From positions 576,001 through 640,000 of the forward strand of contig JAEHCQ010000001.1 of NCBI GenBank assembly GCA_020696385.1: 64,000 nucleotides of DNA, in the 5' to 3' direction. Positions 962-61,023 of this stretch are shown here, one piece after another. Below the pieces are notes generated by a model, which saw nothing but the letters and a program-made list of their open reading frames with translations, did not search any database and was not told where the DNA came from. The stretch comes from Methanobacteriota archaeon (GTDB lineage Archaea > Thermoplasmatota > Thermoplasmata > SG8-5 > JAGLSY01). The translations under genes were made by a program, and so were the position numbers. Each line of letters begins with the position of its first letter. The first letter of the stretch is position 1.

Positions 962-1128
962 TCATAATATCCTCGGACCGATGATCTGCCACAGTATGAG
1001 AAATAGAATGGAGAATGCAAGGAACATGGTCATCGAATCGATGGACTTTGTTCTTTTATCGGCTTCCATATTGGGCTTCAGCTTTTTCGAAATGTCAGTC
1101 AGCCAGTCCTTGAATATGTATCCACCGT
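962..1128 (-). repeat. Duplicate of the last 167 bp of the site-2 protease gene (direct repeat of 1321-1487)
   Basis: 160/167 nt identical to 1321-1487 by manual alignment. All 7 differences are synonymous, and both copies end ...WQIIGPRIL*. Confidence 0.95.
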
Positions 1129-1278
1129 GAGCCTTTTCTTTTATCCTCGCTGCGCCTTAGTTCGAATCGCTATGCTTCTCGAACTAATTATTTGCGAAAT
1201 TTACGCAAATAAGAGCTCGGGCTCCAAAAGAACAAGTATCACAGTGCAAAAGAAAACTCGCCCTCACCTACTCGCTCG
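1129..1278 (-). other. Structured non-coding element, copy 1 (CGAGCGAG...TTTTCTTTT...TTCTTTTGGA...CAGCGAG...AAAAGAAAAGGC)
   Basis: Same motif order as 56368-56515 (-) and 60864-60956 (+). Carries extra hairpins ttagttcga/tcgaactaa and ttatttgcg/cgcaaataa. Confidence 0.8.
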
Positions 1279-1320
1279 TTGTATTTGTTAAGCTGGGTGT
1301 GAGTAAGAACCATGCTCAAT

Positions 1321-2676
1321 TCAAAGTATGCGCGGCCCGATGATCTGCCACAGTATGAGAAATAGAATGGAGAATGCAAGGAACATGGTCATCGAATCTA
1401 TGGACTTTGTTCTTTTATCGGCTTCCATATTGGGCTTCAGCTTTTTCGAAATATCAGTCAGCCAGTCCTTGAATATGTATCCACCGTCCAGAGGAACCGC
1501 AGGTAGAGCATTGGTAAGGCCGACCATGAGATTGAGCCAGAAGATCCAATAAAAGGAATTGGCTATTACCCAGAAGATAGATTCGGGGATGGATGAAAGT
1601 GGGCCAGTGATCTCGTAGAAGACACTTGTCTCTTCAGTTACTGGGCTCATCCTCTGCAATGGCAAAGTGATGTACAGGGCCATTGATTGGATGATGCCAC
1701 CCTGCTCATCCGCTCCCTTGAAGGGGTGGAAAGCATCGGTGGATATGTCCTGAGTGGAGACACCCAGATAGCCTGTGCCATTATCTTCATCTTCCTCTGT
1801 ATAATCATATCTATTGGCTAGAGTGAGAGTGATTGAATCGAATCCCGTATCCTTATGATAGGTCTCGATCGTGATATTCTGTCCCGCGGTGGTATCTTGA
1901 ACAAGATCCGAGAAATCACCATAGGTTTCGACAGGAACTCCATCAAAGGAGACCATGATAGAACCTGCGGTCAAATTGTCGTAGGCTGGAGAATCTGGTG
2001 TGATGCCAGTTATTCCAATACCTTCGCCATTGTTCGCAGGGCCGACAGCTCCCATGAGCAGACCGGAAAAGATGAGCGCACATACCGCAGCGACTATGAG
2101 ATTGGATGCTGGACCGACAGCGAACATCCTCGTCCTGTGCTTGGAATCGATCTTCATGATCTTATCCTCATCGGGCTCCATGAAGGCTCCCATCGGGATT
2201 ATCCAGAAAGTGAGACCCAGTGATAGGACTTTCACGTCCGCATGTCTGGTCATTATGCCATGCGAGAACTCGTGAATTATGATAGCGACTACCAGGCCGA
2301 GAATACCATACCATAATGGGATTATCGGGTTTATGCCAGGCAGACCCAATAGCATGTGTGGTTCGACAACCGCGCTATCCGGTATTCTGACGACCAAAGT
2401 GGCCACCCAGACTAAGACCGCGGTCATAGTCAACATCGCCCCACCCACAAGGATGAGTGATATATTACCATAGAACTTGCAGAATTTTGTGTTCTTGGAT
2501 GCCCTCTCGATAAGATCGCGACCTTTCTTCGTCCTCCACATGAGGAAGGGGCCGTAGAAACTGAGATTGTACTTGTCCAGCTTGGCATAGTACTTACTCT
2601 TCCAGATGATGTACTCTACTATTATCCAGAGAAAGATTAGCCCGAAGGCGAACAGGTACCATTGTGTTAACGACAT
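1321..2676 (-). CDS. Site-2 (M50) intramembrane metalloprotease with PDZ domain
   Basis: HEFSH zinc motif, NALPAVPLDGG motif, PDZ-like GIGITGITPDSPA, multiple TM segments. ATG at 2676 preferred over the GTG at 2730. Confidence 0.92.
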   Translation of the reverse strand: MSLTQWYLFAFGLIFLWIIVEYIIWKSKYYAKLDKYNLSFYGPFLMWRTKKGRDLIERASKNTKFCKFYGNISLILVGGAMLTMTAVLVWVATLVVRIPDSAVVEPHMLLGLPGINPIIPLWYGILGLVVAIIIHEFSHGIMTRHADVKVLSLGLTFWIIPMGAFMEPDEDKIMKIDSKHRTRMFAVGPASNLIVAAVCALIFSGLLMGAVGPANNGEGIGITGITPDSPAYDNLTAGSIMVSFDGVPVETYGDFSDLVQDTTAGQNITIETYHKDTGFDSITLTLANRYDYTEEDEDNGTGYLGVSTQDISTDAFHPFKGADEQGGIIQSMALYITLPLQRMSPVTEETSVFYEITGPLSSIPESIFWVIANSFYWIFWLNLMVGLTNALPAVPLDGGYIFKDWLTDISKKLKPNMEADKRTKSIDSMTMFLAFSILFLILWQIIGPRIL

Positions 2677-2884
2677 ATTATCCTCAGTTGAAGGCGGATA
2701 ATTGGTCGTGCTTATAAGTTTAACCCCCACTTTTTCCTTTTAAGATTATCTATGCTGGATGTCCAATTATAACCCTATAAATTTCTAAAATTTTTCATCC
2801 TGAACTAAGGCGGAAACTACATAACCTCTCAACCCAATCCCTGCCGTTCATCGCCATCCAGAGCTATGAAATAGGTAGCAAACA

Positions 2885-5800
2885 ATGATACGCAATGTAA
2901 AGAAAAAATACAGCAAGAAACAAGTGCTTGGGCAAATGCTTCCCCTTGTCCAGACATGGTTCGATAGGAGCTTTAAAGATGTCACAGAGCCGCAGGCTTA
3001 CTCTATCCCCGTTATACAACAACGCAAGAATATTCTGATATCATCCCCCACTGGCTCTGGAAAGACACTCACCGCCTTCCTTTCCATAATAAATGAATTG
3101 ATGCTCAAGCAGGAAAAGGAAGAGCTAAAGGATGAGATATACTGTGTCTATGTATCTCCATTGAAAGCTCTGGCCAATGACATTGACAAGAATTTGAAAC
3201 AACCACTAGCTGAATTGAAAGACATGGCCAAGGAGCTGGGCTTGGAAGCTCCAGAGATCCGTGTCGGTGTGCGAACTGGAGACACAACTCCCTACGAACG
3301 GCAGAAGATGGCGAGAAAACCACCACATATCCTGATCACCACCCCGGAATCACTGGCCATTGTCCTGACCACGCCGAAGTTCAGCGAGAATCTGAGATCG
3401 GTCGAATGGCTGATAACTGATGAAATTCACGAAATATGCAATTCAAAGAGGGGGTCGATGCTATCCATCACCCTCGAACGCCTGCAGTCTCGTCTGGAGA
3501 AGGATGCGACCAGGATAGGGCTGTCCGCAACCCAGTCCCCCATTAAAGAGATCGCCAGATTCCTGGGAGGTTACGAAAATGGAAAAGAACGGGATGTCTG
3601 GCTGGTGCAAGCAGAAGGGGGTAAGGATTTTGATATCAAGGTCATCACACCAGTCGAGGACATAACATCCCTGCCCTTTGAGATCGTCAATGCCAGGATG
3701 TACGATCGGCTGAAGGAGATGATCGATCAAACACGGACAACACTGGTCTTCACCAACACCCGGAGTGGGACAGAACAGGTGATGCTGAAGCTGGGAGAGA
3801 TGGGGCTGGAGGATATCGCGGCCCATCATGGCAGTCTGAGCCGGGAGACCCGATTGGATGTCGAGGATAGATTGAAGAATGGCGAGTTGAAGGCCGCCAT
3901 TTCATCCACATCATTGGAGCTGGGTATAGATATCGGAAGTATCGATCTCGTTTGCCAGATAGGTTCTCCAAAGTCCATCGCCAAGGGATTGCAGAGAGTG
4001 GGCAGAGCCGGCCATGGTGTCGGCCAGCAAAGCAAGGGGCGTTTCATGGTCTTTGATAATGACGACCTGGTGGAATGCGCGGTACTGGCTAAAAGCGCGG
4101 TGGACCATGACATTGACAGGGTGAGCATCCCGGAGAGCCCGCTGGATGTACTGGCACAAACTATTGTTGGACTTTCATTGGAGAAGAGGTGGGACATTGA
4201 AGAGGCCTATTCGCTTATCAGGAATTCTTATGCATATCACAAATTGACCAAGAAAGACTACATGTCGGTACTCAGATACCTGGGAAGCCGGGACATGCCG
4301 AATGTGTATTCCAAGATCTGGCTGGACGAGGATGAAGGAACATTCGGCGTAAAGAAAGGAAGCCGCCTCATCTACTATCTGAATAGCGGCACCATACCTG
4401 AAGAAGCGAACTTCAAGGTATTCTCCGACAAAGGAGGCAGGCTGGGAGAATTGTCCGAGGGATTCGTGGAAAAGCTTGGCCCTGGTGATGTCTTCGTTCT
4501 GGGTGGTAAGAGCTACAGGTTCGAAAGAGCCAGAGGCATGAGTCTGTATGTGAAGGACGCGACTGGTAAGAGACCGACAGTCCCTTCATGGACCGGAGAA
4601 ATGCTCCCCAGAAGCTTCGATCTTTCAGTCAATATAGGGAAGTTCAGAGAGCGAGTCACAGACCGAATTAGAGAACTTGATCCTGATAAATTATCAAAGA
4701 AAGAAGTGGATGGAAAAACCAGGGAATTGAAGGAATGGCTCGTCAGAGAATATCATCTGGATGGTCAAGGGGCGAATAGTATAATCTCATATTTTAGAGA
4801 GCAACTGGCCTTTAATAAAAATGTCCCATCCGATCGCGACCTGCTGGTGGAGGAGTACGTGGACAAGAAAGGCAATACGAATTTAATATTCCACTTCTGT
4901 TTTGGTAGAAGGGTCAATGATGCACTTTCCAGAGCCTATGCCATGATATTATCCGACAAATATGACACTAACATCAGTGTTTCGATAACTGATGATAATT
5001 TCATGCTCACCCTGCCGAAGGAGATACCTCTGGAGAATTTTGAAGGATTGATAGATGAGAAGAAACTAGTGGGGCTTTTGGAAAGGGCGGTTGGCGAGAC
5101 CGAGCTTTTCAAGCACAGGTTCAGACACTGCAGCACAAGGGGCCTGATGGTTCTCCGTAACTATCAGGGAAGATCAGTGCCTGTTGGCAGACAGCAGCAG
5201 AGGGCGCAGAAGGTTCTGAGAGCCATAAGTGATTCGGATGACTTCCCCCTGGTGAAGGAAACTTACAGGGAGATCATGACCATGGTTATGGATCTGGACA
5301 ATGCAAGGGAGATCATCAGGTCTATCGAGGCAGGCAAGAGGGTGATGCATTACTCCAGCAGCAATGAGATACCATCGCCCTTTTCACATAATGTCGTCCT
5401 GTCTGGCATGTCGGATATCGTACTGATGCACGACCGCAGTGCTTTGCTCAAAGAAATGCACAGAAAAGTTCTTGATAGGATCGGGGGAGCGGGTTCGATA
5501 AAGCCCGAGTTCAAGACAGCGATTGTCAAGGAGCATTTTGCTGGCAAATTGCTGGACATGCATGTGAGGAAAAAGGAGGATATCATCCCACTTATGCGAA
5601 TGACTGGCCCCTTGGAATTATTCCAGAGAAAGGACAGGAGCATCTATGACTTCTCGGATGTCGAGACCAATATCCTGGCAGAATGGTGCAAGGAACTGGT
5701 CAATGATGGAGAAATTCATTCAGTATGGTCTGGAAGAAGTCTCTGGCTACCATCAGATATGGCAACCAGATACGCCTCGATCTACAGATCGGATGACGAG

Positions 5801-8401
5801 ATAACACCGGATGGTCAGAAGATCATCAATATACTGGATGATGCGAAAAAACCCATATCCACAAGATCCATATCCAAAAAACTAGAAGCCATGGACGAGA
5901 GTGAATGGGACAATGCGAGCACGAGAAAGGTATTGAACTCTCTCGAGAGGCGGTATCTCACGGCCAAGACCCAGATGGATGGAAAGGGCTTCGGACTTTG
6001 GGGGAAATTGGTGGTAGAACCTGCCCCGGAAGGGGAGAAGTATCTGAAAGATCGCGTGATCAACCATCTGGATCTTTTCGCACCCCTTTCATTGGAGGAA
6101 CTGTCCTTCGAACTTCGCCTTTCTGAAGAGGTGTTGGAAGGCGTATTGGAAGATATGCAATCCGAGATCGAAGTAATGGCGAAGTCTTTCACAGAGCCAT
6201 ATGTCCAGTACATGCTGGCTCAGGATTATTCCGATCTGAAGAGCACGGGAGAGGAGATCACCATGTCACCATCGGAATTGAGCAATTACCGCACCTGGAA
6301 ACATTTCAATGGATTCAAGAACATTGATGATTTCTTTGAAAGATACGGAAGTGTCGGGATGCTCAATGATGTAGTTTCCAGATTGGGACTGGATGGCATC
6401 GAGGATTGGGGTGAGAAAAGAAGAAGCGGGGATATCCTTCAGGGAAGATTCTGGGATGGGAGTGTTTGCTTTGTCAGGAAACAGGATGCGCCAAAATTCA
6501 TCAATGCCTTCAGAAAAGAGGAATTGGGCAAGGTGGACAAGCAGATATTGAAGATCATATCCGATAATCCAGGAGCGGATATAGTCAAGATACATGAGAT
6601 CTCGGAGATCCCGAAGGACGCGCTCAAGCCCATAGTGGAGAAATTGGATCGGAATATGCATATAGCGAGAAAGCCAGCGGAAAGAGCTGGCTTCAACCCG
6701 AACTTCGAATCCTGGTCAACCAGGAATAAATATTATAAATTGGATAGCAAACGATCTACTATTGATGGCAAGGCCTGGCTATTGAAGAAGCTGATATCGG
6801 CTTATGGACCGATATCAGCTTACGAGCTTGCCAGATCAGCTGGAATGAGGCGGGATGAGATAAGAGACCATCTGCTGAAGCTGAGAAAAACAGGGAAGCT
6901 GGCCGAGGTCTCCGTCATAGGTAGTGAGGGGCAGAAGCTCTATATCTGGGAGAAGGAAGTGAAGAGCCTTCGTAGTGGCGGAGGGAGAGCTCTCAAACAG
7001 GTGAAGGAAAAAGTCCATATCATGACCATCTTCGACCCTTTCGCCTTCCATCACAAGAATGAGATAAGAATGAAGTACGGAGATGCCTGGTACTACACTA
7101 TCTTCCGCGGCTCGAAGCTCATAGGTATGATGGAGATGTGGGAGATGAGCGGATGTCTCGAGATACGGGAACTGGATATCGACGATCCGGATGACCTGCC
7201 AGATGTTCTGAAGGCTATTGATGATTTTTCAGAATTCTACAAGCGCAACTATCACGAAGTTATCAGGATCACGGGAGCCTTTAGAGATAGTGTAGTTGAA
7301 ATGGATAAGAAATATATCAAGATATTCGAAAAGGCCGGGTACTTCAGATCGCGCAATTGGCTATTGAAAGGAGAGGTCGTCGATATGATGATGACCGATG
7401 ACCAGATGGTCTCCTACGCTCTCTGGAAACAACATGTCGTGCCAGAGAGGCATTTCCAGGATATCGAGGAAGGTCTGGCCAAGCTGGGCGGCTTCAAATC
7501 CGACCTGGAGACCGACCTCAGAGTGGATGATCCACGAAATCTTAAGAGGATGTTCAAGGACGAGATAGTCGAGCGAGGCCAGCTCATACCCGAATACATG
7601 ACCTATGCCCTACCTGAAGAGATGGCACTTTACAAAGCCGCGAAGCATGTGGAGATCGATAGAGAAATGAAGTACATGGTTACCGCACTTAACTGGGAGC
7701 ATGGATTGAAACGGAATAGATTGCTGGAATCCACCCCTCTGAGCTTCAGGAATGCGGCAGACGCTCTCACCCGCCTCAATAAAGGCCTCCATGTCCTTCG
7801 AGATCCAAAGAACAATTACTACCTCACCCCGGACTACAGGTATGATAGGGAAGAAGCCAGAGACAAGGTCCTCTGGCTTATTTTTGATTCCTTCGGGGTA
7901 TTCACCGCAGAAGGCCTATCCATGTACACCAAAAGCGAGTACAAGATGGGGGAGATAAGGAGAGCCCTGAGCAGGTTCGAAGCTCAGGGGAAATTGGTCA
8001 AAGGATTCTTGTCAGAAGATGATAATACATTATACTGGCTTGTAAAAGAAGACATGCCCAAATTGCCCATGGAACCTCATGATGTGAATATCATTCTCGC
8101 TCCATCCGCCTATGACAGATTATCCACATACCTCATGCCCATGACAAGGAAGAAATTCGGGTTTGGTTCATGCTTCATCGTGATATATGGAGGGATCATC
8201 GTCGGGGTCTTCAGGGCGAATATGAGAAGGACCGAGCTTCTGGTCGGGGAATACAGAGGCGAGAAAGAGGGATGGGGAATGATACAGGATTATGCGATCG
8301 ATATAGGGCGGCGGATGAGTATCAAGGAAAATGAGGATGTCATAAGTGAAGAGGAGATCATGGACTGGTATGATAAGACATCTGGCCGTGAATTTAATTG
8401 A
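2885..8401 (+). CDS. lhr: Large ATP-dependent DEAD/H helicase Lhr with extended winged-helix C-terminal region
   Basis: SPTGSGKT, YVSPLKALANDI, DEIH, GLSAT, HHGSLS, SLELGIDIG, QRVGRAGH and GTIP motifs of the Lhr core, plus ~950 extra C-terminal residues. Confidence 0.92.
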   Translation: MIRNVKKKYSKKQVLGQMLPLVQTWFDRSFKDVTEPQAYSIPVIQQRKNILISSPTGSGKTLTAFLSIINELMLKQEKEELKDEIYCVYVSPLKALANDIDKNLKQPLAELKDMAKELGLEAPEIRVGVRTGDTTPYERQKMARKPPHILITTPESLAIVLTTPKFSENLRSVEWLITDEIHEICNSKRGSMLSITLERLQSRLEKDATRIGLSATQSPIKEIARFLGGYENGKERDVWLVQAEGGKDFDIKVITPVEDITSLPFEIVNARMYDRLKEMIDQTRTTLVFTNTRSGTEQVMLKLGEMGLEDIAAHHGSLSRETRLDVEDRLKNGELKAAISSTSLELGIDIGSIDLVCQIGSPKSIAKGLQRVGRAGHGVGQQSKGRFMVFDNDDLVECAVLAKSAVDHDIDRVSIPESPLDVLAQTIVGLSLEKRWDIEEAYSLIRNSYAYHKLTKKDYMSVLRYLGSRDMPNVYSKIWLDEDEGTFGVKKGSRLIYYLNSGTIPEEANFKVFSDKGGRLGELSEGFVEKLGPGDVFVLGGKSYRFERARGMSLYVKDATGKRPTVPSWTGEMLPRSFDLSVNIGKFRERVTDRIRELDPDKLSKKEVDGKTRELKEWLVREYHLDGQGANSIISYFREQLAFNKNVPSDRDLLVEEYVDKKGNTNLIFHFCFGRRVNDALSRAYAMILSDKYDTNISVSITDDNFMLTLPKEIPLENFEGLIDEKKLVGLLERAVGETELFKHRFRHCSTRGLMVLRNYQGRSVPVGRQQQRAQKVLRAISDSDDFPLVKETYREIMTMVMDLDNAREIIRSIEAGKRVMHYSSSNEIPSPFSHNVVLSGMSDIVLMHDRSALLKEMHRKVLDRIGGAGSIKPEFKTAIVKEHFAGKLLDMHVRKKEDIIPLMRMTGPLELFQRKDRSIYDFSDVETNILAEWCKELVNDGEIHSVWSGRSLWLPSDMATRYASIYRSDDEITPDGQKIINILDDAKKPISTRSISKKLEAMDESEWDNASTRKVLNSLERRYLTAKTQMDGKGFGLWGKLVVEPAPEGEKYLKDRVINHLDLFAPLSLEELSFELRLSEEVLEGVLEDMQSEIEVMAKSFTEPYVQYMLAQDYSDLKSTGEEITMSPSELSNYRTWKHFNGFKNIDDFFERYGSVGMLNDVVSRLGLDGIEDWGEKRRSGDILQGRFWDGSVCFVRKQDAPKFINAFRKEELGKVDKQILKIISDNPGADIVKIHEISEIPKDALKPIVEKLDRNMHIARKPAERAGFNPNFESWSTRNKYYKLDSKRSTIDGKAWLLKKLISAYGPISAYELARSAGMRRDEIRDHLLKLRKTGKLAEVSVIGSEGQKLYIWEKEVKSLRSGGGRALKQVKEKVHIMTIFDPFAFHHKNEIRMKYGDAWYYTIFRGSKLIGMMEMWEMSGCLEIRELDIDDPDDLPDVLKAIDDFSEFYKRNYHEVIRITGAFRDSVVEMDKKYIKIFEKAGYFRSRNWLLKGEVVDMMMTDDQMVSYALWKQHVVPERHFQDIEEGLAKLGGFKSDLETDLRVDDPRNLKRMFKDEIVERGQLIPEYMTYALPEEMALYKAAKHVEIDREMKYMVTALNWEHGLKRNRLLESTPLSFRNAADALTRLNKGLHVLRDPKNNYYLTPDYRYDREEARDKVLWLIFDSFGVFTAEGLSMYTKSEYKMGEIRRALSRFEAQGKLVKGFLSEDDNTLYWLVKEDMPKLPMEPHDVNIILAPSAYDRLSTYLMPMTRKKFGFGSCFIVIYGGIIVGVFRANMRRTELLVGEYRGEKEGWGMIQDYAIDIGRRMSIKENEDVISEEEIMDWYDKTSGREFN

Positions 8402-8533
8402 ATAGCCCATCTATTTATGTTTTGTGGGAAAAAACTTATGAAGTGGCTTTCTTTCACCGACCCAATAGGTGATTTGAATGTGCGAACCGAGTTAGCATAT
8501 TCAAAATTCCGAAATATAATTGAGGAATTCAAT

Positions 8534-9754: not shown

Positions 9755-9846
9755 GAACTATCAGACCCAACTGGTTATGAATATTCCATTCATAAAGCAT
9801 ATGCTATGATCGAAATTCACGTACAAGTGATGATTACAAGTGCTTA

Positions 9847-52255: not shown

Positions 52256-52688
52256 CTATTTTGTAGGTCCTTCTGGCTGGCAGTTTTATGACCTTCAATC
52301 CAGTTCGATCAGTTATTTGGCTCAGATTCTCATCAAGGGCCACGTCATCCTTCTCGATGAGGGTGAACCAAAGATTTGGTTCACCCTCGCGAAGGTAATT
52401 ATGCGTGACTCCTTGGAATGAATTGATCATCTGGCCAACTTCTTCTATCTTGGTATTTGGAACCTCCATCGCGGCCAGCGTGGAAACATAGCCCAATTTC
52501 TTGGGGGCTATGATGGCTCCATATTTTCTGACAAGGCCTCTTTCCATAAGATCTTCCAGTACCTTGATGATGTCATCTTCAGTGCAATTAAGTTTTTCGG
52601 CAATCGTCCTGTATGGATGCGGCACTGGCTCTATACCTTTCTGAAGTTCCTTCAGTACCTTTTGCTCCAATATGGACATCTCACTCAT
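52236..52688 (-). CDS. ahbA: Siroheme decarboxylase subunit alpha (Lrp/AsnC-like)
   Basis: KLGYVSTLAAM, GVTHNYLR, NLWFTL, LPARRTYKIGVKF. Confidence 0.9.
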   Translation of the reverse strand: MSEMSILEQKVLKELQKGIEPVPHPYRTIAEKLNCTEDDIIKVLEDLMERGLVRKYGAIIAPKKLGYVSTLAAMEVPNTKIEEVGQMINSFQGVTHNYLREGEPNLWFTLIEKDDVALDENLSQITDRTGLKVIKLPARRTYKIGVKFDI

Positions 52689-53682: not shown

Positions 53683-53910
53683 ATTGAATTCTCCTTTTTA
53701 GGGATTTGACCTCATATATATTATATTATATAAAGTTTAAATATAGTTATTATCAGTTTTGATATCCTAACCCATGGGCATTATTCATGAATATCATTAT
53801 TGAAAATAGGTGGCATTTGCTTTAAATTAGGTAATAGTTATTTATAATGTGTCAAAATAATACACAACTATATATATGATTGTTAAACGCATTTAAATGG
53901 AGGATAATAA

Positions 53911-54273
53911 ATGATAGAGCCAGATAATAAATTTGATAGTTTGGGCATCATAATTGCAAGAACATCGATCATGACCGGAAATGCCAGGCAGGCCGTGGAT
54001 TTCGGTATGGGGGCTGCGAAGAAAGGGAAAAGCGTAGGGATATTCCTCATATCCGATGGTGTTTGGAATGCACTGAATGATTCTGGAAATGTATCAGACA
54101 TCATTGGTCAGCTTGTCAATGATGGGGCTAAATTATACATCAGTGATGAACACGCCAGAGCAGCTGGATTTCCCAAAGATAGGGTGATCGAGGGAGCTGA
54201 GTTCATAGAGGACACTTACAAGGTCCTGGTCAACAGCGTGATGGAAGAATGGGACAAGGTGATAATATGTTGA
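53911..54273 (+). CDS. DsrE/DsrF/DsrH-like sulfur relay family protein
   Basis: IFLISDGVW motif and fold pattern; first gene of the DsrE cluster. Confidence 0.7.
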   Translation: MIEPDNKFDSLGIIIARTSIMTGNARQAVDFGMGAAKKGKSVGIFLISDGVWNALNDSGNVSDIIGQLVNDGAKLYISDEHARAAGFPKDRVIEGAEFIEDTYKVLVNSVMEEWDKVIIC

Positions 54274-54686
54274 ACTCGGGTAGCCAAGGAAATCCAACTC
54301 CTTCCACCAGGCCGAAGAAAATGAAGAAGGACATGGGCAAGACGTTAACGATATTGCTTTTGCGCGGACCGTATATCTCGGAATACGCGGACCTGGCAGC
54401 CAATATGGCTCTGAAAGCCAGAAAGATGGGATACAAGGTCAATATGTTCCTTTACCTGGACGGAGCCTGGCTCCCGCATGTGAAGACCGATAAGGAATAC
54501 TCCAATGCTGGAGAATGGCTCAGATGGGCGATAAAGAAAGGTGTCACGGTCAAGGCTTGCCACAGATGCTCCGAAGCTCGTGATCTTACAGAAGACGATA
54601 TCATCCCGGGCGTGGAGATATCAGGATTGTACGGATTCCTGGATATGCTGGCAGAGTCTGACAAAGTAATAACATTCACGGGGTGA
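54267..54686 (+). CDS. DsrE/TusD-like protein with CxxC
   Basis: GPY, MFLYLDGAW, KACHRCSEAR, ESDKVITF. Start uncertain (54249/54267/54321). Confidence 0.8.
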   Translation: MLNSGSQGNPTPSTRPKKMKKDMGKTLTILLLRGPYISEYADLAANMALKARKMGYKVNMFLYLDGAWLPHVKTDKEYSNAGEWLRWAIKKGVTVKACHRCSEARDLTEDDIIPGVEISGLYGFLDMLAESDKVITFTG

Positions 54687-54692
54687 GAAAAC

Positions 54693-55061
54693 ATGGCTTC
54701 ATTGAACAAGAAAGTATTGATATCGCTCGTACACGGAACATACGGACACCAGGATGATGGATTCGGAGCAGTCCAGCTGGCAAATGCGATACTTGCCAGA
54801 GGCGGAGAATGTACACTTTTCCTGAGATCGGATGGTGTTTACATCCTCGTGAAGGGACAGGATCCTAATGATCTGGGCCTGCCAAGCAATCTGGATGAGC
54901 TAGCTGATTTCATCGAGCTGGGCGGAGTGATAAAGGCAGATAGAGCTGCAGTGAAAGAGAGAGGTCTGTTGGCGACAGACCTCATTGAGGATCATGAATT
55001 GATCGAATGGGATGATGTTCTGGGATTACTCGAAGAACATGATTTCTGTTTGACATTCTAA
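54693..55061 (+). CDS. DsrF/TusC-like protein
   Basis: HGTYG, LFLRSDGVYILVKGQ, VKERGL motifs. Confidence 0.78.
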   Translation: MASLNKKVLISLVHGTYGHQDDGFGAVQLANAILARGGECTLFLRSDGVYILVKGQDPNDLGLPSNLDELADFIELGGVIKADRAAVKERGLLATDLIEDHELIEWDDVLGLLEEHDFCLTF

Positions 55062-55099
55062 GAGCGATTTAAAATTTAAAAATAAAGGAGAGAAAAACT

Positions 55100-55327
55100 A
55101 TGGCAGAAGTAAAAATATCAACAGTCGGGCTCAATTGCCCAAAACCATTGATAGAGACAAGGAAAGCAATGAGAAAACTTGCAGCAGGCGATATCCTCAT
55201 CATAGAGGGTGACCATGCGGTTTCCAAGGACGAGATACAGCAGGCCGTGAAGGACACTGGCGATGCAGTATTGGGGGTTGAGGAAACAGGCGGCAAGTGG
55301 ATCATAAAAGTTCAAAAAGGTGCTTGA
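55100..55327 (+). CDS. tusA: TusA/SirA-like sulfur carrier
   Basis: GLNCPKPLIETRKA (CPxP), 75 aa. Confidence 0.85.
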   Translation: MAEVKISTVGLNCPKPLIETRKAMRKLAAGDILIIEGDHAVSKDEIQQAVKDTGDAVLGVEETGGKWIIKVQKGA

Positions 55328-55328
55328 A

Positions 55329-55739
55329 ATGGCTGCAAAATCAATGACCATCGTGATGCATGCTAATGATCTGGACAAGACAATGGCTGCTTTCATTCTT
55401 GCAACGGGAGCCGCCGCCAAGGGAATGGACGTGACAATATTCTTCACCTTCTGGGGTCTGATGGCCATGAAGAAAGGCGCGGCTGACAAATCCAAACTCT
55501 CTAAGTTCAGCATGTTCACTGGAATGATGAAAAAGGTAATGAAAAAGAATAATGTCGCAACACTGGACGAACTCATAAAGGACAGTGCGGAACTGGGTGT
55601 CAGGATGGTCGCTTGCGAGATGACCATGGCACTTATGAACACACCAAAGGAAAGCCTCAGGCCGGAAGTAACAGAGATCGGCGGTGTGGGAACCTATCTG
55701 GATGCAGCCAGTGAATCGAACATAACTTTGTTCATCTAA
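55329..55739 (+). CDS. DsrE2-like (DrsE_2, peroxiredoxin-like) sulfur transferase
   Basis: ILATGAAAKG, IFFTFWGL, VACEMTM, GGVGTYL, TLFI. Confidence 0.87.
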   Translation: MAAKSMTIVMHANDLDKTMAAFILATGAAAKGMDVTIFFTFWGLMAMKKGAADKSKLSKFSMFTGMMKKVMKKNNVATLDELIKDSAELGVRMVACEMTMALMNTPKESLRPEVTEIGGVGTYLDAASESNITLFI

Positions 55740-55755
55740 TCAGGAAGGGTTTACA

Positions 55756-56130
55756 ATGATTGAAAAAATGGGAAAGCTTTCAAGGATGGAACCAAACTCA
55801 CTATCATGTTTGGATGTCGTCAGATGCATACATGGCCTAACAGATACCGATATCAAGACCCTTGAAAGTCTTCCAAGCACTGATGGTATCACCGCTCATG
55901 ATGTTGGAGAGGCGATAGGCAAGGATAGATCCACCGCACACAGAAGCCTTGAAAAACTGGTATCGGCGGGAATTTGCTTCAAAGAGAAAAGGTCTGGCAC
56001 ACCCAGAGGATACTCCAATTATTATCAAAGAATATCCACAAAAGACCTATACAAGATGACCGAAAAGAGCCTGGATGAATGCTATGCCAAGGTCAAAGTA
56101 GCTCTAGACAATGTGAAAGATAATGAGTGA
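55756..56130 (+). CDS. Winged-helix transcriptional regulator (TrmB-like)
   Basis: CIHGLTDTD, GKDRSTAHRSLEKLVSAG helix-turn-helix. Confidence 0.8.
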   Translation: MIEKMGKLSRMEPNSLSCLDVVRCIHGLTDTDIKTLESLPSTDGITAHDVGEAIGKDRSTAHRSLEKLVSAGICFKEKRSGTPRGYSNYYQRISTKDLYKMTEKSLDECYAKVKVALDNVKDNE

Positions 56131-56169
56131 GTGGGATTGAGCCCACTTACTCATTAATTTAATTTTTTT
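56121..56169 (+). terminator. Hairpin plus T-tract terminator
   Basis: taatgagtgagtggg-attgag-cccacttactcatta (15-bp stem, one G-T pair), then atttaattttttt. Confidence 0.7.
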
Positions 56170-56343
56170 ATACAAGGTATTTGCATTCGAACATGCCCCG
56201 TCTGAATGACAGTATCCTGTCATCTGGAGGGCGGGGTACTATATTTGATGGCCCAGTGAGTGACAAACACAGAGTGCTTCCTATTCGAAAACCTCGTTTG
56301 ATACACTGATATATTGATGAGTAAGGGCGAGGATGTTCAAACA

Positions 56344-56367
56344 TAAAAGCGCCGAGAGGGAGATTCG
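56344..56367 (-). repeat. 24-bp duplicate of the tRNA-Ser 3' end (att-like)
   Basis: taaaagcgccgagagggagattcg is identical at 56344-56367 and 56529-56552. Confidence 0.92.
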
Positions 56368-56515
56368 GAACGGAAGCCTTTTCTTTTAATTCTCGCTGTG
56401 CTGGCCGGACTCCAAAAGAACAAGTATTCCAATATCGACCAAACAAGTTTGGAAAATAGATGCGCGAAAACACGCATCTAAAAAAGAAAATTCGTCCGGC
56501 ACTGCTCGCTCGGGA
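56368..56515 (-). other. Structured non-coding element, copy 2
   Basis: Minus strand reads TCCCGAGCGAG..GCCGGAC GAA TTTTCTTTT [two hairpins] ATACTTGTTCTTTTGGA GTCCGGC CAGCACAGCGAG..AAAAGAAAAGGC. Confidence 0.8.
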
Positions 56516-56534
56516 GATAAGATAAGATTAAAAG

Positions 56535-56618
56535 CGCCGAGAGGGAGATTCGAACTCCCGAGTGGTAACCCACACAAGATTTCCAGTCTTGCGCCCTACC
56601 AGGCTGAGCTATCTCGGC
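56535..56618 (-). tRNA. tRNA-Ser (GGA)
   Basis: GCCGAGA/TCTCGGC acceptor, G discriminator, CAAGA-CTGGAAA-TCTTG anticodon arm, long variable arm, GGGAG-TTCGAAT-CTCCC T arm. Confidence 0.95.
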
Positions 56619-56787
56619 TTGGGGTCAGGATTAAAGCAAATGTATTTAGACTTGTCGATTTCACTCATCGAGAATACTATAAATGATAATGGACGATGAA
56701 GCAATATCCAGCATATCCATAAAAATACATCATATTTTCATTCAGATGGTTTTATATCGTTATAACAGGATACAGGGTCAGGTATTC

Positions 56788-57300
56788 ATGAACAGAATTA
56801 AGGTAATTAATGAACCAGCCGAGCTTGTTTCGGTCTTCAGGGCTGTGGACACAGACCTCAAACGTGAGATATTCAAGGAGATCTCAGTAGACTGGAAGAC
56901 TGTCAATTTTATCGAAGAGAAGTTCGGTAAAGAAGGAAGAAAGGCTTTAAGGATCTTTGAGAAGATGAAGCTTGTCGAGACCAGATGGCAACAGCCCAAC
57001 GATGAGGCCGCGACAAAACCTGTAAAAGCCTATCACACGTATTATTCATCCTTCCATATCAACACATCCGCATCCGTGTTCGAGATCAGTGACATCATAG
57101 CCGCTGCTGGTATACCGGACAAAGAGTTCAAGAAGATCGAAGATCAAATAACCACGATGGTGGAGGAAGAAGAGGATGGCGCCTTCTCTGGAGATGTGGC
57201 TGAGAAACTTGAGGTCTCGGGGATCATGTTGAAGGCACTTGTAAAGCGCTCTCCGAAGCTCGATTACAGAGGCCATAGGATCGAAATGTATGAGGAATGA
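56788..57300 (+). CDS. Conserved archaeal predicted ArsR-family DNA-binding protein
   Basis: RIKVINEPAELV, KMKLVETRWQ, KAYHTYY and LVKRS motifs recalled from a euryarchaeal family. Start at MNRIK. Confidence 0.7.
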   Translation: MNRIKVINEPAELVSVFRAVDTDLKREIFKEISVDWKTVNFIEEKFGKEGRKALRIFEKMKLVETRWQQPNDEAATKPVKAYHTYYSSFHINTSASVFEISDIIAAAGIPDKEFKKIEDQITTMVEEEEDGAFSGDVAEKLEVSGIMLKALVKRSPKLDYRGHRIEMYEE

Positions 57301-57447
57301 GGATATCTGAATCAAACCTCCGAATTTGTATCCAAATTTATTAGCACTTATTCTATAGCAAATATTATCTATCAAAATGATATCTGTTAGATATTGATAC
57401 CTATTAGATATTGAATATTTACTAGATATTACCAAAGAGGATGTAGA

Positions 57448-57960
57448 ATGATAGCCATCTTGAGGATAGGTCATAGACCTGATAGGGATAAGAGAATCAC
57501 CACCCATGTTTGTCTTGTTGCGAGGGCCTTTGGAGCAAGCAGGATATTGGTTGATCTCGCGGACCGGGAATTGGAGAACACATTCAATAGTGTGAATGAT
57601 AGATTTGGCGAGGGAGCCAGTATAGAAACCGGAGTCAAATGGAGAAGGGTCATTGGCGAGTGGAAGGGGATCATCGCCCACCTCACCATGTACGGTATGG
57701 AGCTTGATGAGGCAGTGGCTGCCATCAAGGAGAAGGATATCGATGCTGATGTTCTCGTTATAGTGGGTGCGGAGAAAGTTCCTGGCGAGGTTTACAAGGC
57801 CGCGGATTTCAATATATCGGTGGGAAACCAGCCACATTCCGAGGTCGCGGCTCTGGCCATGTTCCTGGACAGGTATTTTGATGGTAATGCCCTAAAAGAT
57901 CTGAAGGGAAAGATGAAGATCATACCGAGCAATGAAGGAAAGGTCGTGGTCGAGGAATGA
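57448..57960 (+). CDS. trm56: tRNA (cytidine(56)-2'-O)-methyltransferase aTrm56
   Basis: LRIGHRPDRDKRITTHVCLVARAFGA, HLTMYG, VGAEKVP, VGNQPHSEVAALA. Confidence 0.95.
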   Translation: MIAILRIGHRPDRDKRITTHVCLVARAFGASRILVDLADRELENTFNSVNDRFGEGASIETGVKWRRVIGEWKGIIAHLTMYGMELDEAVAAIKEKDIDADVLVIVGAEKVPGEVYKAADFNISVGNQPHSEVAALAMFLDRYFDGNALKDLKGKMKIIPSNEGKVVVEE

Positions 57961-58496
57961 CCGGATTACCGACAAGGGCGGAATGCCTCACAATCCTTGA
58001 GGAAGAAGGATGCGAGCCAGGCGTCATCGAGCATTGCCTGGCTGTTGAGTCCCTTGCCATGAAGATCGGAAATATATGCAGAGCCAGGATCGACCTGGAA
58101 CTAATTTCTGCAGGAGCCTTGTTACATGACGTGGGTAGAAGTGTCACGCATGACATCCAGCATGGCATACGAGGTGTGGAGATTCTTGAAAAGAGAAGCA
58201 TGGATGCTCGAGTTATTGACATTGTTCGTAAGCATATAGGCGCTGGCCTGACACCTGAAGAGGCCAGCTTACTTGGTTTTCCATATGGCGATTATATGCC
58301 CGCCACACTGGAAGAGAAGGTGGTTGCATATTCTGATAATCTCATTGGGAATCCTGGATCACCAGATGCCAGGATAAAGTCAGCAGAGTTCATGCAGGAA
58401 TGCATTGACAAAGGATTGGATGCCGCGGCTGAAAGAGCCAGAGCTCTTCACGAGGAGCTCTGCCATTTATGTGGAGTTGATCTAAATGATATCTGA
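57957..58496 (+). CDS. HD/HDIG-domain phosphohydrolase
   Basis: HC...GALLHDVGR, HIGAG, EEKVVAYSDN. Confidence 0.88.
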   Translation: MTGLPTRAECLTILEEEGCEPGVIEHCLAVESLAMKIGNICRARIDLELISAGALLHDVGRSVTHDIQHGIRGVEILEKRSMDARVIDIVRKHIGAGLTPEEASLLGFPYGDYMPATLEEKVVAYSDNLIGNPGSPDARIKSAEFMQECIDKGLDAAAERARALHEELCHLCGVDLNDI

Positions 58497-58968
58497 TAAA
58501 GATAATGGACAGGTGCTCGTTGCTTATGCCACAAAAGGCGGGGTGACTGAAGAATATTCCAGCATCGTGGCAGGCATATTGATCGCAAATGGATTCCAGG
58601 TGGAGCAGGTGGACCTCCGGCGTAATAAGAGACCGGAAATTTCTGATCATGATATCGTGATCCTCGGAACTGGTGTTCGCATGGGCAGGGTGTATGGTCG
58701 GGGAAAGAAATTGCTCGGCCAGGAAGCTTTAAAAAATAAAAAACTGGTGATATTCCTGTCCAGTGGCATTGCTATTGAAGATCCGGAGCAGGCCAGACAG
58801 AAATTCCTCCTGCCGCTTATCGAGAAATATGGCCTCCAACCTCTGGATTATCGAGCATTTCCAGGAAGAATGCCCGAGCCAGGCGGGAATAAGGACAAGA
58901 AGAAGGATACCTCGGATCCAGAGATGGTGAAGAAGTGGGCCAAAGACCTTGTTGAGAAATTGAAATAA
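58486..58968 (+). CDS. Flavodoxin-domain protein (HemG-like fold)
   Basis: VAYATKGGVT FMN-binding loop, ILGTGVRMG. Confidence 0.78.
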   Translation: MISDKDNGQVLVAYATKGGVTEEYSSIVAGILIANGFQVEQVDLRRNKRPEISDHDIVILGTGVRMGRVYGRGKKLLGQEALKNKKLVIFLSSGIAIEDPEQARQKFLLPLIEKYGLQPLDYRAFPGRMPEPGGNKDKKKDTSDPEMVKKWAKDLVEKLK

Positions 58969-59069
58969 CATTCACAATATTTATGATGTGGAATGCTATT
59001 CGAGGTTGGGTCGTTCCCCCATGATCCTTCATCTGGGTCAAGTGAGACGAGTCAGAAGAAGGTGTTAAT

Positions 59070-60614
59070 TTGGTCGATGATTCCAAAAGGGCTCTAATCA
59101 GTGTTTCGGACAAAACAGATGTATTGCAATTCGCCAGTGCTTTGGTAGAACTAGATTGGGAAATAATTTCCACTGGCGGTACCTTCAAGGCACTTCATGA
59201 AGGCGGTATCGATGTAAAGAGAATATCGGATATCATCTCATTTCCCGAGATACTGGACGGTAGAGTTAAGACCCTCCATCCGGCCATCCACGCGGGCATA
59301 CTGGCAATAAAAGACGATCCTGATCATATCGAGCAGATGAAGAAGCATGGATTGGCCATGATCGATCTGGTTGCCGTGAACTTATATCCTTTCGAGGAGA
59401 CAATGAAGAAAGCGGACGTGACAGTTGAGGACGCGATTGAGAACATCGACATCGGCGGGCCGACTATGGTGAGAGCGGCTGCCAAGAACCACGAGAATAC
59501 CATCATCGTGATCGAGCCAGCACAATATGAGGCCGTGGTGGAAGAATTGAAGAAAAACGGAGATGTATGCCTTGACACCAGAAGAAAGCTGGCCATCGAA
59601 GCTTTTTCAAGAACTGCAGAATACGATGCCATCATATCCCAGAAACTCGGAAGTATGCTGGGAGGGGATGAATTTCCGCAAAGATACATATTACCATTCA
59701 GGAAGGTGCAGGATCTTCGTTATGGGGAGAATCCATATCAGACAGCGGCCTTCTATCGAGATATTGAATTGAAAGAACCTTGCATCGCGAACTCGAAGAA
59801 ATTGAAAGGCAAGGGATTGTCATTCAACAATATACTGGACATAGACGCGGCCATCGAGCTTGTGAAGGACTTTGAAGAGCCCACGGTCGCCGTGGTCAAG
59901 CACATGAACCCCAGTGGGGTGGCGAGTGCCGACGGCATCGCGGATGCTTTCAAGCAAGCCCTGGGAGCAGACCCCCTATCAGCCTATGGCGGGATCGTCA
60001 GTCTTAATAGGGAGTTGGATGTCGAGACTGCGACATCCATGAGGAAGATATTTTTAGATTGTATAATCGCGCCATCCTTCCACCCGGATTCATTACCCTT
60101 GCTGGAAAAGAAAAAGGTCATGCTTCTGGAGACTGGCGATCTTGGAGACAAGATGCCGAACACCGATATCAAGAGGGTGACAGGCGGCTTACTTGTGCAG
60201 TCGAGAGACCTGGAAGTTCTGGATCCATCCACTTTGAAAACGGTGACAAACCGCGAGCCAACACAGAAAGAAATGGAGGACATGATATTCGGCTGGAAGG
60301 TGGTGAAACACGTGAACTCCAATGGAATTGCTCTGGCCAAGGACAAGGTGATGATCGGTGTTGGGCCTGGCCAGGTGAGTCGAATAGGCGCGGTGGATAT
60401 CGCGATCAAGAAAGCGGGCGACAGCGCGAAGGGAGCGATCATGGCATCCGATGCCTTCTTCCCCTTCAAGGACAGTGTGGAAGCCGCAGCTGCTGCTGGA
60501 ATAACCGCCATCATTCATCCAGGCGGTTCGATCAGAGATCAGGAAGTTATCGATTGTGCGAATGAGAATGATATCGCGATGGTTTTTACCGGGATGCGGT
60601 GTTTGAAGCACTAG
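59070..60614 (+). CDS. purH: Bifunctional AICAR transformylase / IMP cyclohydrolase
   Basis: RALISVSDK, STGGT, GRVKTLHP, IDIGGPTMVRAAAKN, LRYGENP, ASDAFFPF, PGGSIRD. Confidence 0.97.
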   Translation: MVDDSKRALISVSDKTDVLQFASALVELDWEIISTGGTFKALHEGGIDVKRISDIISFPEILDGRVKTLHPAIHAGILAIKDDPDHIEQMKKHGLAMIDLVAVNLYPFEETMKKADVTVEDAIENIDIGGPTMVRAAAKNHENTIIVIEPAQYEAVVEELKKNGDVCLDTRRKLAIEAFSRTAEYDAIISQKLGSMLGGDEFPQRYILPFRKVQDLRYGENPYQTAAFYRDIELKEPCIANSKKLKGKGLSFNNILDIDAAIELVKDFEEPTVAVVKHMNPSGVASADGIADAFKQALGADPLSAYGGIVSLNRELDVETATSMRKIFLDCIIAPSFHPDSLPLLEKKKVMLLETGDLGDKMPNTDIKRVTGGLLVQSRDLEVLDPSTLKTVTNREPTQKEMEDMIFGWKVVKHVNSNGIALAKDKVMIGVGPGQVSRIGAVDIAIKKAGDSAKGAIMASDAFFPFKDSVEAAAAAGITAIIHPGGSIRDQEVIDCANENDIAMVFTGMRCLKH

Positions 60615-60799
60615 ATTCGGTTTGTTAGGCTGGGTGAGGATAAAGACCCCGCCCCTGCTTTGATCGGGGCAGGGTTTGGTTTTGCCACTCGCTTTACTCT
60701 GCGAGTGGTTCATCTTCCTACTGGCACATCGCAACTGTCACTCGAATAATTATCGAATATAGTACCCCGCCCTGATGAATATTCATCGAATGGTACAGA

Positions 60800-61023
60800 C
60801 GGGGCATGCTCGAACTGGCCGCATATACATCGTTGGGAATATGCCATGCATATAATTACAATTCCCGAGCGAGTAGGGTCGGGCGAGTTTCTTTATTTGT
60901 CCGTCTTTTTTCTTTGGAGCCCGATCCAGCACAGCGAGGGTTAAAGAAAAAAGTGGCGGGGCATAAGCTCGAATTCATCCGCATGGACATCGTAGATAAT
61001 ATGCTCTGCATCTAAATGCAATT
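60800..61023 (+). repeat. Degenerate direct repeats (60800-60863 and 60957-61023) flanking element copy 3
   Basis: Manual alignment gives 51 identities over 67 columns (cggggcat..gctcgaa..ccgcat..acatcgt..aatatgc..tgcat..caatt). Confidence 0.8.
60864..60956 (+). other. Structured non-coding element, copy 3 (minimal form)
   Basis: CCCGAGCGAGTAGG GTCGGGC GAG TTTCTTTA...TTTTCTTTGGA GCCCGAT CCAGCACAGCGAG..TAAAGAAAA. Confidence 0.8.

Follow-up and report, generated by a model that had tools for sequence, protein, structure and literature searches.

Small folded elements with duplicated gene ends form a candidate mobile family in Thermoplasmata archaea

The 64,000-nt stretch of archaeal DNA analysed here (the window) contains three copies of a small intergenic element, each followed directly by a second copy of the sequence that lies upstream of it. 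The first, a long form at 1129..1287 on the minus strand (covariance model 63.2 bits, E 8e-14, model span 1120-1287), has its head motif at the high-coordinate end, carries two extra hairpins in its 3′ half and ends in a purine tail at about position 1129. Upstream of it lies an intact gene for an M50-like site-2 protease (1321-2730, minus strand, from the list of open reading frames). The final 167 nt of this gene, including the stop codon (1321..1487, minus), are present again at 962..1128 (minus) as a displaced second protease end that begins right after the tail of the element. Both copies hold the same 53 codons, the last five of which are synonymously recoded in the downstream copy, giving 5 synonymous and 0 non-synonymous codon differences. 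At the nucleotide level seven synonymous substitutions separate the two tails, and the remainder is ~99% identical.

The second element (56368..56521, minus; 56.5 bits, model span 56366-56521) is found directly 3′ of the gene for tRNA-Ser(GGA) (56534-56618, minus). The 3′ end of this tRNA with its T-run (56531..56554, minus) is repeated at 24/24 positions immediately downstream of the element (56344..56367, minus). Alignment places this copy at the orthologous site in the sister genome G002 as well, where the downstream repeat is kept at 23/24 positions and a 46-nt two-hairpin module in the loop (~56433..56481, minus) is missing, leaving a gap in the alignment; modules of this kind recur in many long copies. 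The third element is a short core form on the plus strand (60857..60956; 106.9 bits, model span 60857-60964). It is made up of outer stem strands at 60864-60876 and 60927-60940, inner stem arms at 60877-60883 and 60920-60926, a 5′ pyrimidine tract at 60888-60898, a 3′ pyrimidine tract at 60904-60915 and a purine tail at 60943-60956, all on the plus strand. Its upstream copy (60800..60863, plus) is non-coding and is the end of a different repeat family of ~225 nt. The downstream copy (60957..61023, plus) has diverged (flank alignment score 24, ~76% identity over ~65 nt) and has no better match anywhere else in the genome. The entire 453-nt intergenic block at this locus is missing from G002. 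The original prediction had placed three such elements here with a common motif order and exact common strings, all of which are present in the sequence and in the covariance model placements, and flank alignment recovers the repeats that it described (167 nt of protease, 24 nt of tRNA-Ser and ~65 nt of intergenic DNA at 76%). The CG that it had noted 6 nt beyond GAAAA belongs to the conserved tail.

A profile search of the whole 2.28-Mb genome, which belongs to a Thermoplasmata archaeon related to the Methanomassiliicoccales, assigns all three elements to a family of ~43 copies and fragments. The core is ~85-100 nt long, the inserts are ~100-250 nt and no gene lies within them. Solo heads, internally deleted copies and tandem arrays of gene end plus element are also present. 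A survey of the order and class gave an element match in 19 of 41 genomes, with several families represented, and the covariance model returned 86 matches across 80 sources. At the gathering threshold, Rfam matched only two tRNAs in the window and left the elements unmatched, and five element loci searched at E values up to 1 gave no match. A small folded element with duplicated gene ends does not appear to have been described so far. The prediction of a non-autonomous mobile unit of no named family stands, given its presence and absence at orthologous sites, the lack of an Rfam match and the lack of a gene.

The strand that folds is shown by comparison of the copies to be, in all probability, the sense strand of the upstream gene, since 30 G.U cells against 5 A.C cells occur in the stem. 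The outer stem is irregular, with tandem G.A positions, and together with a covarying inner stem it closes a pyrimidine-rich loop. Across the family alignment 94% of stem cells are paired, and stem covariation reaches 0.631 compared with 0.158 in shuffled alignments (0/500 reach 0.631) and no more than 0.088 for slid partners. When sequences are folded singly, z-scores reach only −1.6 to −1.7. The 3′ purine tail is predicted to pair with the 3′ pyrimidine tract of the loop, forming a pseudoknot helix whose median length is 18 bp, as comparison between copies shows. The T-run after the C of this tract equals the A-run before the G of the tail in 68 of the 74 sequences that were parsed when read antiparallel, and the median duplex of a tail with its own tract is −16.95 kcal/mol, against −11.65 with the tails of other copies. 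In short copies there is no conserved upper stem between the pyrimidine tracts, and the topology is that of a pseudoknot. The 5′ tract follows a parallel register, its T-run before the C equalling the A-run before the G in 53/74 sequences (rho 0.74, compared with −0.17 for the antiparallel alternative), although the subfamilies are related and these correlations hence reflect few independent changes. This would set the C of the 5′ tract parallel to the G of the tail, as would be expected of a triple helix of U.A-U and C+.G-C layers in which the 3′ tract is the Watson-Crick and the 5′ tract the Hoogsteen strand. Only 1-4 nt separate the outer stem from the tail, a linker that cannot reach the loop past a straight outer stem, so on geometric reasoning the modelled outer stem and pseudoknot must alternate, or else the outer stem must kink.

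The duplications extend well beyond the window. The covariance-model search of this genome and its relatives that had been proposed earlier shows the family to be general, and a repeat of the upstream sequence directly follows the element in 30 of the 43 copies, ranging from 16 to 318 bp. A repeat was called where the best alignment between the flanks scored at least 16 and the downstream copy started no more than 12 nt from the 3′ end of the element; the flank alignments of 18/43 copies score above the 99th percentile set by 300 random control sites. No repeat is detectable at the other 13/43 copies, and in relatives 12 of 28 testable loci have a repeat and 16 do not. The targets at the 30 repeat-bearing loci are unrelated, and most of the repeated sequences are ends of genes or tRNAs on the same strand. 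Within 80 nt past the end of a same-strand ORF are found 17 of 42 copies, compared with 8.9% of control sites. The two ends of the element behave differently. The 3′ end is precise and abuts a target point 16-318 nt upstream, while the 5′ end is imprecise and lies at or just past the stop codon, with the result that the gene end is present twice. Among 22 type-I copies, 9 have a repeat that begins exactly 7 nt beyond the A tract, and 6 have 3-7 extra, mostly G-rich, bases at the junction. The target resembles the tail (at least 7/12 matches) at 7/38 loci, a level reached by 2% of 12-mers drawn at random from gene ends (binomial p 1e-5); at 27/38 junctions tail homology is no greater than at random sites. 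The covarying fold, with its predicted pseudoknot and triple helix, the link to the 3′ ends of genes on the same strand, and the contrast between a precise 3′ and a ragged 5′ end are observations that go beyond the original prediction.

Comparison with sister genomes bears on how these arrangements arose. At two loci the orthologous site is empty in 3/3 relatives, and at the protease locus G002 has a single gene end and no element. The reverse also occurs, with one locus empty in the present genome (G000) and filled in G002. Because the empty sites are single-copy, the elements are best read as insertions with long and variable target duplications. In lineage-specific insertions the paired copies are identical (22/22 and 27/27 nt). 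Older pairs are allele-like, and codon differences between paired gene-end copies number 68 synonymous and 19 non-synonymous. In each of two genomes, the paired copies have lineage-specific changes in common. This pattern shows that paired gene-end copies probably evolve in concert, and the allele-like divergence of older pairs appears to go with that concerted evolution. The features of a diversity-generating retroelement are not found, as there is no reverse transcriptase (RT) and the differences between copies are not adenine-specific but fall at third codon positions and involve all base types.

Taken together, we favour a polar insertion that would start at the tail. Starting from its 3′ tail, a folded single strand may be copied into the target, with priming or template switching that would sometimes use tail-like homology and sometimes add extra G-rich bases, after which the 5′ side of the element would be joined downstream. 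Only events that keep the gene intact would survive. The copied strand would most simply be a read-through 3′ UTR RNA whose end has been trimmed as far as the triple-helix cap, with single-stranded DNA as a less likely alternative. Gene conversion and recombination between the two copies, including loss and regain, may then keep the displaced copy allele-like. The fold would also be expected to shield the 3′ end of the upstream mRNA, and such protection would explain why the structure is conserved in each copy. The whole account, in which the elements are an old, slowly moving, small, non-coding and non-autonomous mobile family of Thermoplasmata archaea with this fold, this insertion pattern, tail-first copying and later homogenisation, strikes us as about evenly balanced between right and wrong. 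A more specific version is offered tentatively, as a possibility that is on the whole doubtful: SINE-like retroposition in archaea that lack a dedicated RT, whereby the triple-helix-capped 3′ UTR RNA would be copied by a host polymerase or primase at purine-rich gene-end sites and the long duplications then homogenised. The sense strand carries T-runs within the element (T4CT4 and T6). Such runs should often halt archaeal RNA polymerase, here inside the element, which counts against a read-through RNA. The RT family RVT_1 has no match in the 94%-complete genome, and RT matches occur in 3/19 element-bearing relatives and 5/22 other genomes. As no RT was found, an RNA intermediate would be without a known enzyme.

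Simple one-step insertion does not predict all that is seen. At 9/38 loci the repeat extends into the first 5-19 nt of the element and breaks at the base of the stem, and neither this run-on nor the solo heads would be expected from it. Both are accommodated if the downstream copies are secondary and the element, as DNA, forms a barrier to replication through its hairpin and purine-pyrimidine mirror tract. The nascent strand would stop at the edge of the fold, slip back to an upstream and sometimes tail-like site, recopy the gene end with the first bases of the element and then return, while slippage across the stem would delete elements and leave solo heads. The breakpoint exactly at the 3′ edge of the fold, the internally deleted copies, the tandem arrays and the repeat-less elements both here and in relatives are all consistent with this. 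However, the repeat was already present in all 4 lineage-specific insertions overlapping gene ends that were checked against empty sites. At each of the 5 orthologous filled loci that show a repeat, both genomes carry it (4 of them aligned, with the same 3′ junction), and among 6 shared loci compared no pair has the element in both genomes and the repeat in only one. The barrier also leaves the arrival of the element at new loci unexplained, and we consider it unlikely. The related suggestion of a cis-acting module that drives duplication of adjacent sequence is retained as a rival.

It is also conceivable, though distinctly unlikely, that the gene ends have been replaced. Here DNA of a relative comprising gene end and element would recombine by homology inside the gene, its tail end would join illegitimately further upstream in the recipient gene and the recipient's own gene end would be displaced downstream. 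The evidence for this comes from one locus in particular (C22:311297), where the upstream copy agrees over its last 15 nt with G001 (14/15) and G003 (13/15), and the downstream copy over its last 15 nt with the closest relative, G002 (13/15). The synonymous protease tails described above and the overwhelmingly synonymous differences between copies elsewhere point the same way. Yet G001 and G003, which match the upstream tail, have no element at that site, recent insertions carry identical copies, and the lineage-specific changes common to both copies in two genomes fit gene conversion better. Replacement would further require that, dozens of times independently, a DNA end fell exactly at the tail. 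The claim that the unit inserts with a homolog of its target fails for the lineage-specific insertions, which are identical local duplications, and holds in part for older pairs, with their allele-like synonymous divergence and the one locus at which each tail resembles a different relative.

A third explanation takes the elements to be REP/REPIN-like, as folded single-stranded DNA substrates moved in trans by a single-copy Y1 (HUH) transposase. One Y1_Tnp gene per genome is present in many members of the order, the G000 gene lies 314 nt upstream of an element, and the elements are extragenic, structured and strand-specific with conserved motifs at the stem base. Even so, elements do not flank the single-copy Y1 gene. 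None of 13 Y1 loci in relatives has an element within ~2 kb, so that the association is seen at 1/14 loci overall, that of G000 itself, and Y1 genes occur in 12/19 element-bearing and 10/22 element-free genomes. Transposition by Y1 enzymes is not known to duplicate the target and acts at a fixed short site, against the target duplications seen in 30/43 copies here, and we regard this explanation as improbable. The original prediction that no RT, transposase or integrase lies in the window holds for the families searched (RVT_1, the TnpB zinc-ribbon family, Y1_Tnp and Phage_integrase); TnpB zinc-ribbon has no match in the genome, and the Y1_Tnp matches and four tyrosine-recombinase (Phage_integrase) matches are all on contigs other than that of the window. 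Those four matches, and a layout of regenerated gene end plus displaced copy that includes tRNA genes, would suit an integrase footprint of att-site duplications left after loss of most of an element, but this is scarcely credible given 30 loci at unrelated targets with repeats of 16-318 bp, the same ~100-nt gene-free insert recurring everywhere, no integrase match on the window's contig, no such element in a pattern scan of viral contigs and no full-length integrative element seen to end in the family's head and tail.

Small non-coding mobile repeats are already known. We have not found described together the combination of comparative support in archaea for a pseudoknot whose purine tail takes part in a triple helix, a polar insertion signature (gene and tRNA ends duplicated over long and variable lengths, next to a precise 3′ end) that resembles target-primed copying in RT-less genomes, and displaced gene ends held allele-like through concerted evolution. 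Should the fold cap mRNA 3′ ends, a means of stabilising RNA that is found in eukaryotes and viruses would also exist in archaea, and should the copying be RNA-templated, it would indicate a so far unrecognised source of genome change. Were retroposition without an RT true, it would provide the first triple-helix 3′-end cap outside eukaryotes and their viruses, as well as a new way for RNA to template changes in prokaryotic genomes. The elements account for many cases in Thermoplasmata genome bins where a tRNA or gene end is oddly duplicated or a contig breaks off, and may serve as markers to trace recombination between lineages.

Among known systems, the eukaryotic SINEs and non-LTR retroelements, which move by target-primed reverse transcription, are likewise short, non-coding and non-autonomous. 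The family has in common with them an A-rich 3′ tail, a precise 3′ end, a ragged 5′ end, variable-length target duplications at unrelated sites, occasional homology between tail and target and extra junction bases. Unlike SINEs, it is archaeal, has no RT found in its own genome or in most carriers, shows no sign of its own promoter, makes much longer duplications (up to 318 bp) and strongly prefers same-strand gene ends. MITEs are similarly small, non-coding, dispersed and variably present among relatives, but the family has no terminal inverted repeats (head and tail compared), no fixed duplication length (16-318 bp) and no parent insertion sequence that we could find. Integrative elements at tRNA and gene 3′ ends produce the same order of intact gene, insert and displaced gene 3′ end, tRNA targets included; the inserts here are ~100-250 nt and gene-free, with dozens of unrelated targets and variable repeat length. 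Bacterial REP/REPIN sequences, which go with RAYT transposases, are also structured extragenic repeats found by the tens per genome 3′ of genes, with selection for the hairpin and a single-copy Y1 transposase in the genome. The family differs from them in having no element-flanked Y1 gene and no GTAG/CGTC-type tag, and in its long target duplications and pseudoknot tail.

The closest structural parallels are triple helices. In the relevant passages of one review (PMC13541005), 3′-end-protecting triple helices are described from eukaryotic and viral RNAs and transposable elements, and prokaryotic ones are linked to riboswitches. Comparative evidence suggests that the family may, like the ENE/MALAT1-type triple helix, have two pyrimidine tracts clamping a downstream A-rich tract, with a third-strand C opposite a purine-strand G. 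Both structures would sit where a transcript unit has its 3′ end, and both are associated with mobile elements. Tycowski reportedly described ENEs in plant and fungal transposable elements in 2016. The family is predicted to have its tracts in a hairpin loop with the tail pairing back as a pseudoknot, whereas the ENE uses an internal loop between stems, and its tail is genome-encoded and not a poly(A) tail. H-type pseudoknots with major-groove triples occur in telomerase RNA and in the SAM-II and preQ1-II riboswitches. These likewise have a pyrimidine-rich loop 1 lying along stem 2, which is built with an A-rich 3′ strand; the family stands apart from them in being mobile and multi-copy, in its much longer stem 2 (median 18 bp) and in having no apparent template or ligand role.

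The three elements of the window and their flanking repeats are, on inspection of the sequence, exactly as first described, and they belong to a real and undescribed family of structured, non-autonomous mobile elements with a polar insertion signature. The genome under study, which comprises 2.28 Mb in 50 contigs at about 45% G+C and carries the window on contig C11, contains 17 copies by a simple motif search and 43 copies or fragments by a profile built from 8 short copies (E up to 0.01). Copies within this genome have a median pairwise identity of 65% (93% for the most similar pair), the low median indicating that they are old. With copy 3 as the BLAST query, 19 of 41 related genomes, counting our own, gave matches. 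These comprise all four of the other searched members of its family, 11 of the 13 searched in a second family, and one genome each in three more families of the class. Scanning species-representative genomes for the pattern gave 80 stretches, of which 59 lie in bins labelled Thermoplasmata, Methanomassiliicoccales, Thermoplasmatota or "Methanobacteriota archaeon"; the other 21 are bacterial and are taken for chance matches of a GC-rich pattern. The same kind of scan gave no element stretch in viral contigs, no Rfam family was matched at either the gathering or the E-value threshold, and the literature, in the portions available, yielded no description of such repeats in Thermoplasmata or Methanomassiliicoccales.

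The flanking repeats recur well beyond the window. The 350 nt upstream of each copy were compared with the 350 nt downstream, a positive requiring a score of at least 16 and a downstream member starting 0–12 nt after the element. By this measure repeats are present at 30 of 43 copies in the genome (one of them doubtful, its upstream member lying 323 nt off), and 18 of the 43 score higher than 30.6, the 99th percentile for 300 control sites chosen at random. The repeats are 16–318 bp long and 76–100% identical. Thirty loci were also taken from four relatives, and 12 of the 28 testable ones have the same pattern. The original prediction looked to such repeats at further copies and to empty sites in relatives, and the latter are found in both directions. 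At C11:72992, all three genus relatives have a single copy of a 22-nt sequence where our genome has an element between two identical copies, each ending at the stop codon. The site at C22:311297 is empty in all three relatives, and that of the window protease locus is empty in the closest sister genome, G002. Conversely, our genome is empty where G002 has an element and an identical 27-nt duplication. Since relatives retain empty sites, the elements arrive by insertion; on these sequence comparisons, the sites prove insertion, with the repeats as target duplications.

Copy 2, behind the tRNA-Ser gene, is common to G002, including its 24-nt repeat (23 of 24 positions identical). Nested inside the loop of this copy is a 46-nt two-hairpin module (window ~56433–56481, minus strand) that is missing from the orthologous G002 copy. 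Modules of this kind, about 46–70 nt long, are nested in the loops of many long copies, and their stems covary between copies. A separate observation concerns a 599-bp G002 contig holding a complete element, of which the counterpart in our genome (C11:77841–78376) retains the last 37 nt only. The two are 97–99% identical, compared with 82–89% for other flanks, which could reflect a recent exchange or a cross-over in binning or assembly.

Elements are concentrated behind genes. Seventeen of 42 copies lie no more than 80 nt past the end of an ORF of 100 or more codons on the same strand, compared with 8.9% of random non-ORF sites, while 5 of 42 are near the start of an opposite-strand gene (controls, 9.1%). 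Of the 19 loci where a long same-strand ORF is present, 11 have an upstream repeat copy whose end is no more than 3 nt from the stop codon. Outside the window, at C47:27143–27608 and C2:12207–13703, units made up of a gene end and an element are arrayed in tandem, in twos or threes.

A second repeat family of about 225 nt adjoins copies 3 and 2 (window 60621–60845, plus strand, and 56172–56355, minus strand). It has inverted motifs rich in GC, as well as a hairpin in which the head motif of the element occurs, and there are many matching places in G002. One locus common to the two genomes has it in G002 but not in ours, so this family looks mobile too. Between element 1 and the protease stop codon lies a spacer (window 1288–1320, minus strand) in which about 22 nt resemble, by eye, the terminus of this family in reverse orientation. 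Another member of the family was considered as the source of the downstream copy at locus 3 and rejected, as the genome elsewhere holds no better match.

The polarity of the insertion is visible at its junctions. Of 22 copies whose tail is of the GGCTT type, nine have the repeat start at exactly 7 nt past the A tract and two at 5 nt past it; six have 3–7 extra, mostly G-rich, bases before the repeat start, and in five the similarity extends back into the tail. Judged from these junctions, the 3′ end of the element is precise. When the last 12 conserved bases of the element are set against those preceding the upstream copy, 7 of 38 loci agree at 7 or more positions, compared with 2% of random gene-end 12-mers (p 1e-5), and 4 of 38 agree at 9 or more, compared with 0.09%. 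At the remaining loci such homology is no better than random, so it characterizes a minority of junctions. Comparison of tails with the targets of other copies was not significant (p 0.22) but is a poor control, as all tails share one consensus, and for this reason the gene-end control was preferred. The 5′ end is ragged, with 5–17 variable bases before the head motif and at most 54 nt from there to recognizable repeat. Unexpectedly, at 9 of 38 loci the repeat runs 5–19 nt into the element head (at two of them, into a second element) and then breaks. Solo heads and internally deleted copies also occur. Two of the latter lie outside the window on the minus strand: the one at C11:568228 has the GCGAG that follows the 5′ stem arm fused straight to the tail, as recombination between the two GCGAG direct repeats would produce, and at C11:52343 the deletion is at about the same place.

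The consensus stem was drawn from an alignment of 23 short copies, and a covariance model built on it gave 86 matches (75 distinct) from 80 sources. Across these, 94% of stem cells are paired and both sides have changed in 10 of 13 pairs. The covariation score of 0.631 compares with 0.158 in shuffles (reached by none of 500) and falls to 0.088 or less once the partners are slid. The stem holds 30 G·U cells versus 5 A·C, an excess which identifies the folding strand as the given one, i.e., the sense strand of the upstream gene. The outer part of the stem is conserved and irregular, with an AGCGAG motif on both strands and tandem G·A positions, and in one subfamily it is swapped for 6–7 complementary bases of any sequence. 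A bulge-helix-bulge intron and a kink-turn were both considered for this part and set aside by eye, as the motifs did not seem to fit. The inner part is a helix of 6–9 bp that varies among copies through compensatory changes. Single-sequence folding z-scores are modest (−1.6 to −1.7).

The loop contains two pyrimidine tracts, and the 3′ tract with its preceding bases is complementary to the purine tail that terminates the element. In 68 of the 74 sequences that could be parsed, its T-run after C is as long as the tail A-run before G; for the other half-tract such agreement holds in 57 of 74. For cognate loop–tail duplexes the medians are 18 bp and −16.95 kcal/mol, compared with −11.65 kcal/mol with the tails of other copies and −11.0 with shuffled tails. 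On this comparative evidence, the 3′ tract and tail form a pseudoknot. In the 5′ tract, the T-run before C equals the tail A-run before G in 53 of 74 sequences in parallel register (rho 0.74; read antiparallel, −0.17). This is the pattern expected of U·A-U and C+·G-C triples; as the subfamilies are related, it rests on few independent changes. Because just 1–4 nt link the outer stem to the pseudoknot, by our own geometry the latter would be incompatible with an outer stem that stays straight, and either the two alternate or the stem kinks. The folded single strand could be either RNA or DNA.

The two copies of a displaced gene end could be compared at 19 loci with a long ORF, comprising 423 codons. 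Differences by codon position are 17, 10, and 72, with 68 synonymous and 19 non-synonymous codon differences (62 and 8 without two doubtful ORFs). Neutral decay, by our own estimate, would give about 1.5 non-synonymous per synonymous difference, and the downstream copy is therefore not a decaying pseudogene. A diversity-generating retroelement is likewise rejected, as there is no reverse transcriptase and the differences are not adenine-specific. One locus shared with G002 has two copies that match perfectly over 40–41 nt within our genome and likewise within G002. Between the genomes about 8 positions differ, both copies having changed at the same sites, and the 3′ junctions are orthologous; the copies thus evolve in concert. 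At C22:311297 the repeat body is identical and the last 15 nt of each copy resemble different relatives, while the final five codons at the protease locus are synonymously recoded between copies. From these patterns we infer frequent gene conversion, loss and regain by recombination between copies, and exchange between lineages. Conversion with loss and regain would occasionally expose the displaced end to selection.

No enzyme can be named as the mover of the element. RVT_1 has no match in our genome; among relatives it occurs in 3 of 19 that carry the element and 5 of 22 that do not. The genome likewise has no TnpB-type match, and its four tyrosine-recombinase matches all lie off the window's contig. 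Two of these are on contig C1, which at 30.7 kb and 42% G+C (lower than the genome) may be an integrated or extrachromosomal element. The original prediction suggested looking for a recombinase, HUH nuclease, or reverse transcriptase gene beside longer copies. A single-copy Y1 transposase gene (143 aa) lies 314 nt upstream of one element, beside a duplicated tRNA-Phe. The order there (positions 1231–2396 of locus L165, from contig C50) is Y1 gene, tRNA-Phe, element, and a 318-bp repeat at 81% identity containing another intact tRNA-Phe whose stem differences are compensatory. The association does not extend to relatives, where none of 13 Y1 loci has an element inside about 2 kb; Y1 occurs in 12 of 19 element carriers and 10 of 22 non-carriers.

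Two other explanations are each compatible with part of the data: gene end and element may be imported together by recombination, or the fold may provoke replication slippage. The mechanism we prefer is that the folded single strand would be copied from its purine tail into gene ends. SINEs need a reverse transcriptase, and a genome devoid of RVT_1 matches sets the element apart from them in this respect. In its mode of insertion, however, copying from the purine tail would work much like the target-primed insertion of SINEs.
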